From: Vairimorpha necatrix
Lineage: Eukaryota
Reading direction: 5' to 3'
DNA: 64,000 bases
NCBI GenBank assembly: GCA_036630325.1
Contig: CP142735.1
Location: 310,001 to 374,000, forward strand
Shown: piece by piece, positions 15,001 to 21,000 of the stretch
Layout: every line of letters begins with the position of its first letter
Numbering within the stretch: the first letter of the stretch is position 1
Made by a program: the position numbers

Positions 15001-18000
15001 CAATCTTTCCTAGTCTTTCACTAAAAGTGTCTTATTTAAGTAAAATGCTAATGACTAATTGGAGATATTTAAAACACAAAAAACATTTGTTATATAAATC
15101 TTTATATGTATTCATTACATATATATATATACCCTCTCATTTTGCCATCTATTGTCAATCATTTCTTCAGTCTAGCGATGTGCCAGTCAATAATGGCTAT
15201 TCCTTTGGGCAGGGCACGTCTCAGTATGCAAATGACTCGTCACACATAGATCATTCAATTTTAAAGTATTGATGGGAAATCTGTTCGAAATACAAATTTC
15301 TTAGATCATCTAAGATATTATATAAATAAATATTTATATAACGATGTATTTAACAGTGTTTGTTGATTAAACTAATTTTTTATGTTTCTCTATTATATAT
15401 ACTAACTTTACTTTGTTTGCAAGCGATAGATAGAATTAGAATTTTTTAATCGCAAAGAATATTAAGTCTACTTTTGAAGTTTGATACTTACAATACTGTT
15501 TATTCTGAATTTTAATAATAGATTATTTCGTCTTGTCGATATTATTATCTCTTCTTAAATATATATACATATACAAATACATCTCTTTCTAATAATAAAT
15601 TGGTCGTTTAAAATGTCAAGAATAATTACTTTTAAGCCTTTATGATATAGCTAAGTTCTTTTGTAATAAATTATTTTGAGGAGATTAATTTCCTCATTTA
15701 CTTACCATGATTTTCTTCTCTTTCTTATTACATTGTATATTTACTTGTTGTGTTTGAAAAATCTAAAATTTAAATCTCTAAAATTAATTATTGCATTTTA
15801 GACTAATTATTTTTCCATGATTTTCTTTTCTGTCTTATTGTATATATATAAATGTATATAGAATTTTCTTCATTATAAAATGAAAATTTCAAAACTCTAA
15901 CATTCAAAATTATGACATTTTAGACAAATATTTTTTCATGATTTTTATCAACTTCTTATTTTTTATAAATGTGTATATATACTTGTCATCAATGAAAAAA
16001 AAATCAAATTTATGTCATTTTAGATAATTTATTTTTTCATGATTTTATTCTTATTCTTGATGTTTGAATATATATACTTGTCATCCCTGGAATATTAAAA
16101 ATTTGGAAGTTAAAAAACAAAATTTTGACTAGCCTCTATTTACTTTAAAATTTTGTATTCTTGGCGAGTAGAAGAGAAGATGAAATATTATACATGAACT
16201 CAAAAGAAAGAGAATTAATTATCCAATTGATACAGGGCATTTCTACTCTCTTAACTATTACCGAATACTTGCGCTTCACTATCTCCGACGTAACCATTTA
16301 GATTTGATGAGAATATTTTTATATACAAGCCTCTAATCGCATCATTAAATCAATAAATATATTAAAATGAAGATTTTTTAAACTCAGTATAGATTTATCG
16401 TTTTAATCTAGTCTAGAAATTATATATATAAATCATCTAGATCCCAGATGGCTCTTTCTCTTACACAGAACACTAAAAGCAAACTTGTTAAACTTCTTTG
16501 TAACTAATGAAATTATTGAACAGATCTCCATCTTATACTATATCTTGTTTGTATAAAAACAAACTTCATAAATTTCTTCATAAAGAGTGCCATAATCGGC
16601 TTTTAGATTCTTATAGAATGTGTTTATTTTCCTTAATGAGGGGTAAAAATAATAAGGATATATAACATCCCCCCTCCAAGACGGTAGTCTCATACTAGAA
16701 CTCATTAATCCCAAGCAGACCTTTTAAATCATAATGCCGCTTTTTCACGATCCTACCATTTTCCAAACTAACTAAGTACGAGTCACCTCCGCAAACTTCC
16801 TTGATAACACCATATCCTAAAAACCTTCCTTTCTCATACTTACTACAACCCGATAAGTTCTCTTTCTTCGCTACCCTAACTCTCTGACCTTTATAGAATT
16901 TCTCTCTTTTGCGAGCCACAAACCTCCTACTATAAAATCCTTCAGGTCCATTCTCGATCATAACATGGCCCGTTTCGTCTCTTGAGGCCTCAAACGGTGT
17001 ACATCTCAACCCTTCATGATAGCTGTTATTATAACGCCATATACATCTATTAACCTTGGCTTCAAAATCCACAGCATCATCTTTCAATATTCCTTCTCTT
17101 ATGGTTCCTATTACCCTTTCCACTCTTCCATTACTTCTATGACTTTCTACGCTTACTTTCCTATGTAATACATTTTCCTCTGAACACCAATTCCTCATAT
17201 ATTCATTACTAAATTCTTTACCGTTGTCAGTAATTATTTCTACCGGTTTCATTCCTGATCCACACAACTGTTTTAAAAATCCTACAACCGAGCTTCCGCG
17301 TTTGACCTCTATTACTTTTCCCCAAACGATCCTAGTATAATAATCAATCACGACCAACACATATTTCCCTAAATCTCTAAACTCAATCAAATCCAAAGCA
17401 ACCTTTTCCAAATAAAATCTTGAACTAACAAAATCACAACCACCACTCTTTTTCCTATTATATATTTGGCAAACTTCACACTTCTTTAAAACATCCTCGA
17501 TATCCTTCTTCATACCCGGCCAATAAAATTCAAACTTCATTGCATAGTACACTGATCCTAAACTTCTATGTCCCAAATTTTCATGAGCATTGACAATTAA
17601 CCCTTCACGCAATTCTTTCTTTGGAATCTCCGCTTCTCTATCAGAGTCAAATACCCAAATTTCCTTTCCATCAACAACTTTAACATGCTTGTCCCATTTA
17701 CCCTGTGCCTGTTTAATACTTCTCTCCTTATTCATTAGCGTTTTCTCATTTTCATGTACCCTACTCAGTGCATCTGCTACAACCATGGTACTAGGCTCTC
17801 TATATTCAATGCTAAAGTCGAACTCTTGAATCTTTTCAATCCACCTGTTAATTCTATTATTGTTAAATGCTGGTTTATTTCTAATCTCGATCAATGCCTT
17901 ATGATCAGTTTCTACCCTAAATCTTCTTCCGCGTAGTTCATATTCAAACTTTTTAATTCCCCAAAAGACTGCATACATCTCCTTCTCACTGATTCCATAT

Positions 18001-21000
18001 CTCGTTTCCGTAGGCGTAAACTTTTTTGATGCCCACTGTACTGGTACCCAATTACCTTGATCATCTTCCTGCATTAAAACAGCACCCATTCCAACATTAC
18101 TCGCATCCGTGCGTAACAAAAATTCCTTATTATAATTAACAATTGCTAAACCTTTTAAATCCCTAATCACTTCCCTTAAACTAATATATTCTTTTTCCAT
18201 TTCTTCTGTCCATTTCCAATTACTTCCTCGTCCTTTAAGAGAATCTGTCAACGCCAATGTACGTTTTGCATAATTATCAATATGATTTCTAAACCATCCA
18301 GCCAGCCCAAGAAACTTCCTAACATCTGATACACACTCCGGTTTGGATAATTCTAACGCTTCATTTTGCTTTATTTCAGATGGCAGTATCTCCTTGCCAT
18401 TAACTGTTACTCCTAACAACATCGCCTCTCGTTTACATAATTGAACCTTAGCCAAATTAATTTTCATATTATTCTCCTCTAATATATCCACAGCCTCTTT
18501 CAACAATTTGTCGTGACCCTCTCTTGTCTTACTATGAATCACAATATCGTCCATATAAATTTCGATTCCCTTACCAATAAATTTTTCAAAAATCCCATTC
18601 ATTATTCTTTGTAATATCTGCGGTGAGTTTTTAAACCCCATGACCATCGAATTCCACTCGTATACCTTTTTATTAAACTCAAAAGCCGTCTTAAACCTAT
18701 CCTTCTCTTCAATCTCAATACTATAAAACCCCTCCTTTAGATCTATCACGGTAAAAAATTCAGATCCCTGTGTACTTCTAATAACATCTCTTATCCTAGT
18801 TAACTCATAAGGATCCTTCTCTACAATGTCATTAAGAGCAATTAAATTACTTACTAATCTTATATCACCATTCGGTTTCTCAATCGCTCTAATGGGATTT
18901 CTCCAGTCAGATGTCGACCTTCTAATTATCTTTCTTCTTTCCAAACTATTAATATAATCTTCCGTCTTCTTCAACAAAGCCTGAGCTATAGCCTGCCCTT
19001 TTTTAACAACTTTCTTGCCTTCTTGAGTCTTGATAATACATTTTTCAACCTTACAAAAACTAATATCTTCATCCTCTCTTCCTCCTACCCGTGAAATAAT
19101 CTCCTCTAAATACGCGATGCCTCTTACATCCCTTCTCAACAGAACTCTCTTATTATTGTCCCTTTTGCTATAATCTTGTATATCCCCTAAATTTTTCTTC
19201 TTACGTTTTCCACCATCAACATTATAATAATCACATTTGTCCGAATTGGAATCGTCATCACATTTACCCCCTAAGTCTAATTGCACTTTACATTTACCAA
19301 CATAATTAAAACTACTTTTATTTCTTCTGTCTTCAGAATCTCGCCTCATTCCCCTACAAAATCTAACACTATGGCCTAACTTCCCACAATTGTAGCAACG
19401 CATATTCTTTTTATTTTCCTCACGAGACAACTTATTCTTCTCCTCAAATTTAGCCCATAACGCTAGGGACAACTCTTCAAATTCTTTTTTTCTCACTTGT
19501 TCCTTTTCCTCCTGAATAGCTAGCAACTCTAATTTTTCCTCAATTTCCTTCCAACTACCCTCTTGCGAGATCCTCTCAACAATAAAATTTCTCAATAAAA
19601 TAGAACCTCTCCTAAAAATTTCTAACTTAAATCCACACTCATCAATTTTCTCTAAAAACAACTCATAAACAATCCTTTTAACCTCTTTTAATAATATTCT
19701 AGCCTCTTGGCCACGGTCCTCCTTTGTAGACCCATTTTCTGGTATCGCCCCCATGTGTTTATTTTCCATAATGAGGGGTAAAAATAATAAGGATATATAA
19801 CATAGAATATACAGCTATGGTATTTTGAAACACAGAAGGACAAATTATACGTGACAAAATTTGAACTGTGAATATATTTTAGAAATTAATGATAAATAAT
19901 TACAAGAGATACTTTTCATAATATTTGTTTAGTCTATCAATCTTGAAATATTATATTTAGTGACGTCTGAATGTCCGCGAGTAGATATCTTTATACTTAG
20001 AATAAATTTAAATTTATTCCCACCGGGAATCGAACCTTGGACCTTCGATATCCCAAATCAAGGTGCAACTATTCTGCCAAGCACACTTATTATAATTTTG
20101 GTTATCCTTTAAGAAACCAATTATATTTTCAACTTCCTTTAATTTTTGTTTTCTTTCTATGCATAAAGAAACATTTCATATTAGTCAGATTAAAAGATCA
20201 TTAATCTGTATGAATCAAATAATAGAACAATTTACAATGTTAGTTTTATGCTTTCTTATATAAAATAAAATTATATAAGATTTTCTGGCTAATATCAGCA
20301 TCTGTGTAAAAAAACTGGGGGGGTCAAAATTTTTAAAAAATTGCCCCTTTTTTTAAAAAACGAAAGGAAGAATGAGCAATGAGGAAATTGAAGATTTTTA
20401 TATATCTTTAACAAATAAGAAATACAATCAGAAATGTATTAAATGTGGTTGGGATACAGCTATTGCATCAAATGAAACTGCTTACTTGAGGTGTAATTCT
20501 TCAAATTGCAAACACAGATTTTCAATTTGGAAAAATTCTTTTTTTGAAAACACAAGACTAGAACATTTACTGATTATAAAAATAGTAAATTTGTGGATAT
20601 TAGGAATTAAATTAATTCTCATATCAAAGATTTTGGGATGTAATGTACAAAATGTAAGTTACACCCTAGATAAATTATATAAATTAAAAATTTATGATAA
20701 GTATTTGAACAAGCTGAAGCAGATAGGCGGACAAGATATCATTGTAGAAATAGATTAAAGTAAAATTGGCAAAAATAAGCATCATAGGGGAAGATTAGTT
20801 AAGGGGTTTTGGTGTTTCGGTATGGTGGAACGAACCGAAGCAAAGAAGATTGTATTCGTAATTATAAAGAAAAGAGACAGGGATACATTATTTCCAATCA
20901 TGTTTAATCATGTAAATTTTGAATCCGTAATTCATTCGGATATGTGGACGGCGTATGCAACGTTAAAAAATCATTATGCGGACCATAGAACTGTGAATCA

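Follow-up and report, generated by a model that had tools for sequence, protein, structure and literature searches.

The minimal kit that textbooks and annotation practice assign to long terminal repeat (LTR) retrotransposons consists of Gag, protease, reverse transcriptase (RT), RNase H and integrase, framed by LTRs of at least about 100 bp. The Nbr elements of Nosema bombycis are said to have been described by Xu et al. in 2006. PMC2474625 states that coding sequence for Gag, protease, RT, RNase H and integrase is present in nearly every N. bombycis element. Three Ty3/gypsy groups with a single polyprotein are reported as specific to microsporidia (Parisot et al. 2014, PMC4202319; repeated in PMC13174016), and the word protease does not occur in the main text of PMC4202319. 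The locus described here lies in a 64,000-nt stretch of the Vairimorpha necatrix genome (assembly GCA_036630325.1, contig CP142735.1, positions 310,001 to 374,000 of the forward strand), referred to below as the window and numbered from its first base. It is a Ty3/Gypsy element of 3184 nt on the minus strand (16619-19802), and the canonical Ty3/Gypsy aspartic protease between Gag and RT is absent from it. The element shares host phylum, the single Gag-Pol open reading frame (ORF) and the order RT-RNase H-integrase with the microsporidian single-polyprotein Ty3/gypsy elements; unlike the N. bombycis elements as given in PMC2474625, its lineage is without protease. Relatives are known from the named microsporidia Nosema, Vairimorpha and Enteropsectra, with Gag and Pol in one ORF, too. 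A literature search, the scope of which excluded most subscription journals including that of Xu et al. 2006, returned neither a protease-less, integrase-bearing Gypsy/LTR lineage nor microsporidian LTRs of about 50 bp.

The LTR pair is the only outstanding repeat between 16300 and 20100 (51 nt, 98% identity, spacing 3135 nt in a repeat search). Trimmed to their TG..CA ends, the two LTRs measure 49 nt each and agree at 48 of the 49 positions; in element orientation the full LTR reads TGTTATATATCCTTATTATTTTTACCCCTCATTATGGAAAATAAACACA. Direct LTRs with TG..CA ends (TGTT..CACA) are thus present, although unusually short, as are a 5-bp target-site duplication (TSD), a polypurine tract (PPT) beside the 3' LTR and the Pol order RT-RNase H-integrase. 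The element is assigned to Ty3/Gypsy on the homology of its RT, RNase H and integrase together with these cis signals. A first-pass annotation of the window had listed the TSD TAGAA, the 48/49-identical LTRs, a primer-binding site (PBS) and a PPT, all of which were borne out by the sequence and the repeat search (Table 1). It had also described an uninterrupted ORF of 1024 aa filling about 97% of the element and a short Gag ahead of a CCHC knuckle; the ORF covers 3075 of the 3184 nt (96.6%), and the knuckle was found close behind the Gag helices. The ORF starts within the 5' LTR, reads through the PBS and ends 27 nt short of the 3' LTR.

At the position usually occupied by the protease the polyprotein has a charged spacer predicted to be disordered. 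No Pfam protease family was matched by the whole ORF at E<=1 or by aa 1-250 at E<=10, the zinc knuckle being the only match in the latter scan. Between the knuckle and the YMDD motif of RT there is no D[TS]G motif, and no alternative minus-strand frame of at least 50 aa lies between knuckle and RT. In an AlphaFold2 model of aa 1-250 (33 aligned sequences) the predicted local distance difference test score (pLDDT) of spacer residues 148-215 was below 50, with just two strands of four residues each; in a second AlphaFold model covering aa 130-300 (36 sequences) aa 147-212 remained below 50 and showed no strand at all. Retropepsins are beta-rich (the Pfam retropepsin models comprise 90-101 positions), and no retropepsin-like domain is predicted here. 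When 1.84 billion representatives were searched by phmmer with aa 1-240, there were 36 matches at E<=0.001, 4 of them at E<=1e-10, which were either short proteins over the Gag part or matches limited to the knuckle region.

Remnants of other Gypsy elements in the window served as positive controls for the same Pfam scan. The remnant at 31986-32441 (-), with the motif DTGS, matched Peptidase_A2B (2.3e-7), and that at 55291-55782 (-), in which a CCHC knuckle is followed by DTGA, matched Asp_protease_2 (7.8e-4) and RVP_2 (1e-3). A third protease-bearing remnant, at 9871-10614 (+), matched gag-asp_proteas (4.5e-7). The first-pass annotation had stated that no D[TS]G precedes RT in the element and that other elements of the window have DTG at this place. 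The former agrees with motif scan, Pfam and both AlphaFold models, the latter with the three remnants scoring for retropepsin families; profile search and structure prediction of the N-terminal region revealed no divergent protease fold.

Lack of the protease extends to the relatives of the element. A word-indexed protein search (length window 563-1792 aa) yielded 246 matches at E<=0.001, of which the best 120 were listed. The first 43 form a clear block (E<=1.6e-104, 37-98% identity), followed by a drop to 35% identity or less; its named members are Nosema granulosis, Vairimorpha necatrix and Enteropsectra breve. One named relative above 37% identity is an exception, a 3-kb contig (L004) filed as a Clostridium metagenome-assembled genome (MAG), which we read as contamination. 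A precomputed Pfam protease family is assigned to none of the 43 closest proteins versus 23 of the next 77 among these best 120 of 246. Relatives at 40-50% identity are encoded on L004 (3024 nt, Clostridium sp. MAG) and on two contigs of a Turicibacter sp. MAG, L005 and L006; the most likely source of all three is eukaryotic DNA that contaminates these bacterial bins. A scan of a viral contig collection found no relative.

In a full-length alignment of the window ORF with 22 relatives (n=23; 40-98% identical to the window ORF) all catalytic and metal-binding positions considered are invariant. This applies for C125, C128, H133 and C138 of the knuckle (23/23), D343, D407 and D408 of RT, D555, E597 and D622 of RNase H, and H729, H734, C764, C767, D793, D848 and E884 of the integrase. 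The spacer from the knuckle to the first conserved RT-proximal helix, by comparison, varies from 25 to 103 aa (median 43) and contains no conserved column; it is shorter than 90 residues in 22 of the 23 sequences and in some amounts to only 25-34. The distance from knuckle to YxDD is 218-296 aa in 36 clade sequences including the window ORF, with P0032 (356 aa) beyond this range, versus 447-611 aa in four outgroup polyproteins that have both motifs. A D[TS]G inside this interval occurs in two of 37 sequences only (P0006 and P0010). An hmmscan at E<=0.1 covered 23 relatives (22 at least full-length, with P0032 and P0020 among them), none of which matched RVP, RVP_2, Asp_protease, Asp_protease_2, gag-asp_proteas or Peptidase_A2B. 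Weak matches to Peptidase_A17 in three of the 23 (E 0.047-0.068) were discarded, since their location at aa 483-615 is downstream of RT, not next to Gag. Across 33 alignment members 61 families were matched, and no retropepsin appeared in the 25 that occurred most often. These comparisons support the view that absence of the protease is a feature of the lineage and not a deletion in one copy. The stripped-down lineage proposed at first pass is matched by the 23 aligned full-length members, none of which has room or signal for a protease, and the survey of homologs retrieved no close relative with a protease while catalytic residues stayed invariant. One relative has a different layout: the metagenome protein P0036 (L001, L002) opens with the RNase H motif LTTDSSNIGVGA and has its CCHC knuckle at 213 and YxDD at 475, an order suggesting that two copies of the element are joined in tandem or rearranged.

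The Gag part is predicted to be helical. In the model of aa 1-250 three short helices (19-39, 44-54 and 57-66) and one helix of 50 residues (73-122) reach pLDDT values above 90, and the knuckle has a pLDDT of about 85. A VIA structure search (48,161 chains) placed capsid lobes in the top 30, all of them over model residues 15-89: the Arc C-lobe 4x3x_A (Z 6.3, root-mean-square deviation 2.5, 64 aligned), the C-terminal domains (CTD) of rat Arc 7r24_A (Z 6.0) and human Arc 7r1z_A (Z 5.7), and from RSV the capsid (CA) CTD 3g26_A (Z 5.5) and Gag 5a9e_A (Z 5.4). Foldseek of the same model against PDB and BFVD gave no match at E<=0.001; weaker matches were to zinc knuckles and to a single Arc C-lobe. 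The ESM Atlas clusters nearest to aa 1-215 combine zf-CCHC with Caulimovir_coat_dom (0.90) or Retrotrans_gag (0.88), to be taken as leads only, and contain no protease family. The model thus suggests that Gag keeps a single capsid-like lobe, as a lead and not as proof. Complex prediction for two copies of aa 1-145 scored 0.00 and gave no answer on self-association.

Both ends of the element are compact, too. The 5' LTR shows TGTTATA at its end, TATATA (positions 4-9), a T-rich tract (15-24), CCCC (25-28), ATG (34-36), AATAAA (40-45) and the terminal ..CACA. The integrase-recognition consensus of LTRs in Metaviridae and retroviruses is given as TGTTRNR in PMC3601003, with TATA-like and AATAAA signals also conserved, and the 5' end TGTTATA fits this consensus. 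In microsporidia, according to PMC2803860, 5' untranslated regions (UTRs) are shorter than 7 nt, and the ATG is closely preceded by a CCC-like motif, with an AAATTT-like signal ahead of that; pre-ATG examples from N. ceranae are AATTTTTTTTACCCCACAA and AACTATTTTTACCCTTCAAA. In the element LTR, ATTATTTTTACCCCTCATT stands directly before the ATG and resembles the N. ceranae example AATTTTTTTTACCCCACAA; likewise, ATTATTTTTACCCC is followed by the ATG 5 nt later. Judged from these motifs the LTR looks like a minimal core promoter of the microsporidian type. Transcription would start at about LTR positions 28-33, giving a U3 region of about 30 nt. The AATAAA signal would direct cleavage to the LTR end or just beyond, leaving an R region, with or without U5, of about 17-22 nt, and R regions of 10-21 bp have precedent (PMC3601003).

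The sole mismatch between the LTRs is found at LTR position 35 (19768 versus 16633), where ATG is changed to AAG in the 3' LTR only. The first-pass annotation had placed this mismatch in the start codon. The difference of ATG and AAG is real, but it sits in the 3' copy, which is not translated. Relatives begin with M-x(3-5)-M-(A/G) or directly with M-(A/G), and P0001 as well as P0030 and P0038 of V. necatrix open with MENKYMG or MINNYMG. An upstream ATG, at LTR position 34, thus characterises the subfamily but is not universal. The ATG of Met6 consists of the last LTR base, A, and TG of the PBS, and this ATG straddling the LTR/PBS junction is probably the initiator conserved in the lineage. 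The PBS is translated. The lone tRNA of the window (27724-27796) was considered as cognate of the PBS and rejected, showing no match to it.

At the other end, several relatives terminate in ..GGDV.., which we read as translation of GGGGA/TGTT, i.e. of the PPT running into the LTR (the slash marks the border). The 3' ends of the window element, L003 (56% protein identity) and L004 (50%) share GACTACC(C)GTCT, a few bases and then GGGGA/TGTT. L003 continues into a stretch of 49 nt, TGTTA..CACA, with AAATTTTTACCC directly before ATG. The far LTR boundary in L003 and L004 is placed by analogy, the second LTR lying outside both contigs. No direct repeat of at least 25 nt was present in L001-L003, and the other three, L004-L006, are degraded or cut short. 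Full-length relatives on Logan contigs have ORFs of 996-1019 aa, the contigs measuring 3035-3159 nt. If these contigs are closed repeats like those of 3165 nt described below, the period would exceed the ORF by about -1 to 70 nt, and the relatives, too, would have room only for LTRs of a few tens of bases.

Directly upstream of the PPT, GACTAC followed by CGTCT is invariant in the window (Table 1), L003 (3197-3210) and L004 (2700-2713), which have an extra C before CGTCT, at a protein identity of only 50-56%. A bipartite primer site is known from Ty3, and by analogy the block could be a second cis signal, e.g. the 3' half of such a site. In some relatives the block is apparently translated (..ETPSGGGDVV tails). 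A hairpin in this block was not supported; the z values for the three loci were 0.65, -1.73 and -1.00 and the folds differed among them. Rfam gave no match in 15000-22000 at E<=1.

Evidence for transposition came from the contigs of four public runs compared over 16300-20100; 20 runs from 14 studies hold part of this interval. Contigs of X1 and X3 join 16612 to 19802 and skip 3189 nt, i.e. the 3184 nt of the element and one TSD copy of 5 nt. This joint is an empty target site and defines the termini of the element with single-base precision. Other insertions are marked by loose contig ends, before 19754 and behind 19804, that continue into differing flanks in X1, X2 and X3. The flanks themselves (16300-16618 and 19803-20100) are repeated and polymorphic in X1 and X3, with short contigs, 4-19 differences and an element-like depth. 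The element has thus landed inside another repeat family, and since several diverged short contigs exist for these flanks, the empty site in X1 and X3 may be a paralogous site rather than an allele. X1 and X16 each contain a contig of 3165 nt, with 12 and 87 differences from the window, respectively. We read this length as the period of 3135 nt plus 30, as expected when a repeat closes on itself with words of length 31. Near-identical LTRs, the empty site, several insertion sites and the X1 contig with its 12 differences agree with the recent activity proposed at first pass. No second copy of the element occurs in the 64-kb window, and the other Gypsy remnants there show only 22-51% protein identity to it.

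The window copy itself has diverged from its closest relatives. It differs from P0001 (98% identical) by 18 amino acids, and 7 of the 12 nucleotide differences from the X1 contig are non-synonymous and 5 synonymous. Four residues are private to it: D710 (G in 22 of the 22 others), S475 (P in 18/22), L474 (F or Y in 20/22) and A449 (V or I in 21/22). The X1 contig, the X16 contig and P0001 all carry the common state at these sites. The earlier description as intact therefore holds for the reading frame only. The copy is young and open-framed but looks as if it had drifted since insertion; it may be decaying and may no longer be the active copy.

Table 1. Features of the element and of its surroundings in the 64,000-nt window (residue numbers refer to the 1024-aa ORF)
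Feature	Position	Strand	Basis
TSD TAGAA, downstream copy in element sense	16614..16618	.	Sequence; empty-site joint 16612->19802
3' LTR, 49 nt, TG..CA; AAG replaces the ATG of the 5' LTR at 16633	16619..16667	-	Repeat search
PPT GGAGGGGGGA, adjoining the 3' LTR	16668..16677	-	Sequence; ..GGGGA/TGTT junction also in L003 and L004
Conserved non-coding block GAGACTACCGTCTT, directly upstream of the PPT	16678..16691	-	Three-way comparison of window, L003 and L004
Single ORF, 1024 aa, Gag-RT-RNase H-integrase polyprotein	16695..19769	-	ORF call, Pfam, alignment
Integrase C-terminal region, aa 871-1024	16698..17159	-	Conserved blocks, e.g. GQ.VRVAK, DSYLV, KKRHYDLKG
Integrase zinc-binding (HHCC) and DDE core, aa 717-870	17160..17621	-	Integrase_H2C2, E 1.3e-13 (aa 717-772); rve, E 2.4e-9 (aa 792-870)
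RNase H, aa 520-650	17820..18212	-	RT_RNaseH, E 2e-32 (aa 546-650); RT_RNaseH_2, E 9.9e-27 (aa 520-619)
RT with N-terminal extension, aa 213-456 (YMDD 405-408)	18402..19133	-	RVT_1, E 3e-31 (aa 296-456)
Disordered charged spacer, aa 139-212, at the usual Ty3/Gypsy protease position	19134..19355	-	AlphaFold models, alignment, Pfam
Single CCHC zinc knuckle (nucleocapsid), aa 125-138	19356..19397	-	zf-CCHC, E 0.0036 (aa 124-138), sub-threshold (17.8 vs cutoff 20.8 bits); invariant Cys/His
Gag helical domain (predicted), aa 19-122	19404..19715	-	AlphaFold model, pLDDT >90; structure search; Atlas
Putative PBS TGGGGGCGATACC, within the ORF and adjoining the 5' LTR	19741..19753	-	Sequence
5' LTR, 49 nt	19754..19802	-	Repeat search; sequence
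TSD TAGAA, upstream copy in element sense	19803..19807	.	Sequence; empty-site joint
ISXO2-like/IS1595 fragment	14093..14830	+	Pfam
ISXO2-like/IS1595 fragment	30933..31286	-	Pfam
ISXO2-like/IS1595 fragment	40730..41509	-	Pfam
ISXO2-like/IS1595 fragment	56536..56826	+	Pfam
Degraded Gypsy lineage keeping protease	9871..10614	+
Degraded Gypsy lineage keeping protease	31986..32441	-
Degraded Gypsy lineage keeping protease	54814..55782	-

G+C makes up about 30% of the window, in which broken mobile elements form a patchwork. Besides at least three degraded Gypsy lineages that keep a protease (motifs DTGS, DTGA) it contains four ORF fragments of ISXO2-like/IS1595 DDE transposases (E 7.7e-15 to 1.8e-9). 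One fragment of this Merlin/IS1595 type lies within a broken Gypsy element at about 30.9-31.7 kb; Merlin-type DNA transposons are described as abundant in microsporidia in PMC4202319. About 220 nt from the 5' end of the element, GGGAATCGAACCTTGGACC, an inverted repeat at 20025-20051, resembles the reverse strand of a tRNA T-arm. Neither ARAGORN nor Rfam called a tRNA there, and the stretch may be a tRNA-derived remnant or chance.

We consider it fairly probable that the window holds a young insertion of an autonomous Ty3/Gypsy-type element, belonging to a microsporidia-specific lineage of about 3.1 kb that has no protease step encoded by the element. Transcription would then start a few nucleotides upstream of the ATG inside the LTR, giving a U3 of about 30 nt and an R (with or without U5) of about 20 nt; a tRNA would prime at the coding PBS, and the PPT would prime the plus strand. 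The polyprotein would function without processing by an element-encoded enzyme. It might act as an intact Gag-Pol fusion held on its own RNA via the knuckle, in a ribonucleoprotein-like state and not in a closed capsid, or else cellular proteases might clip it within the disordered spacer. Put in its strongest form, the proposal is that the whole long-lived lineage works as an unprocessed Gag-RT-RNase H-integrase fusion in a cis-acting ribonucleoprotein (RNP) without a conventional capsid, that the LTR combines a host-style minimal promoter with integrase ends, and that some ORFs run from LTR to LTR; this we put forward only tentatively and would sooner bet against than for. Several points weigh against an own-protease-free cycle. 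We know of no direct precedent for such a cycle among integrase-bearing LTR elements, and the protease-bearing Gypsy families of the same window make help in trans physically possible. The scores of the capsid lobes (Z 5.4-6.5) lie in the range that calibration of the tool assigns to noise from unrelated helical bundles. No tRNA matching the PBS was found in the 64-kb window by tRNA search and ARAGORN, and the LTR length of the relatives is seen directly only at single 3' ends (L003, L004) and otherwise derived from contigs.

Alternatively it might be that the lineage relies in trans on the protease, and perhaps the capsid, of co-resident Gypsy families. The protease is required for transposition in Ty3, Tf1 and retroviruses and is essential in the experimentally studied LTR elements, and at least three other Gypsy lineages with a retropepsin are found in the same 64 kb. 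The copies of the latter in the window are all broken, however, and the protease-less state is shared at 40% identity across Nosema, Vairimorpha and Enteropsectra, and is therefore old and stable. The spacer, as the expected place of cleavage, is hypervariable as regards both length and sequence and shows no sign of a conserved site, and parasitic elements usually shed more than one domain. We regard trans help as unlikely and prefer a cycle free of an own protease because the state spans 40%-identical sequences from several genera without a conserved cleavage site. Much less probable still is a cryptic protease in the Gag-spacer region, be it a divergent retropepsin or an unrelated type, e.g. 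around QLDLGG. Retropepsins are short and diverge fast, and many distant Gypsy polyproteins also come without a precomputed protease family (among the best 120 of 246 matches). Against this, the QLDLGG columns are gapped in 19 of 21 other relatives, as at G167, and a spacer of less than 90 aa in 22 of 23 sequences compares with retropepsin models of 90-101 positions. The region is also predicted to be disordered, nearly strandless in the one model and strandless in the other, phmmer with aa 1-240 reached the Gag part or the knuckle region only, and no alternative frame of useful size exists.

Two further readings concern the window copy itself. It could be an inert relic that decays neutrally while the family is mobile via other copies, which would be compatible with the autonomous, protease-free lineage favoured here. 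The private residues D710, S475, L474 and A449, for which X1, X16 and P0001 have the common state, and the share of protein-changing differences from the X1 contig (seven of 12, with five silent) speak for decay. All 1024 codons are open, however, all catalytic residues are present, the LTRs differ once, and no private residue falls on a known catalytic position. A relic is thus a serious possibility, to which we give slightly less than even weight. That the copy arose by in-frame deletion from a protease-bearing close relative is next to negligible: all 43 proteins down to 37% identity are without a precomputed protease family, the clade is short from knuckle to YxDD (218-296 aa in 36 sequences, one further at 356) compared with the four outgroups (447-611), and the search window of 563-1792 aa would have admitted protease-bearing relatives.

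The lineage questions whether an LTR retrotransposon needs a protease of its own. If the autonomous, protease-free reading is true, the protease, and probably a closed capsid too, would be dispensable in a conserved mobile lineage, and a natural one-protein system of 3.1 kb would be available for asking which LTR and Gag functions are required. Such elements would also be under-counted in microsporidian genomes under default LTR-length cut-offs; LTRharvest and LTR_FINDER use a default minimum LTR of 100 bp. Microsporidia parasitise insects and other animals, and their genomes serve as models of genome reduction; here a mobile element would have taken on the extremely short promoter and 5' UTR architecture of its host.

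Ty3 and Tf1 measure about 5 kb; they have a capsid of two lobes, an essential protease, a TSD of 5 bp and LTRs of roughly 340-360 bp. The element described here follows their plan of LTR-PBS-Gag-Pol-PPT-LTR, has a TSD of 5 bp and a DDE integrase after RT, and shares the CCHC knuckle with Ty3 and the single ORF with Tf1. Unlike them, it is only 3.2 kb long, its LTRs are of 49 bp, Gag comprises about 140 aa and a protease is absent. In the predicted Gag fold, residues 15-89 superpose on the C-terminal lobe of Arc and on the CA-CTD of RSV and lie just upstream of the knuckle, where a CA-CTD is expected; in contrast to the capsids of Arc, Ty3 and retroviruses there is one lobe and not two, the scores are in the noise range and Pfam and phmmer revealed no sequence similarity. 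A non-autonomous identity as terminal-repeat retrotransposon in miniature (TRIM) or large retrotransposon derivative (LARD) was rejected on the ORF of 1024 aa with its invariant catalytic residues. DIRS, Ngaro, Penelope-like elements and long interspersed nuclear elements (LINE) encode no protease either, and their proteins are thought to act as RNPs on their own RNA; they have no DDE integrase and no true LTRs bounded by PBS and PPT. An identity as DIRS or Ngaro, which are marked by a tyrosine recombinase in place of a DDE integrase and by split or inverted repeats, was discarded, too, since the rve DDE core and the HHCC finger are present, no recombinase family is among the Pfam matches and the LTRs are direct. 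With these groups the lineage thus shares the lack of an element-encoded protease; unlike them, it has a DDE integrase, direct LTRs, a putative PBS and a PPT.

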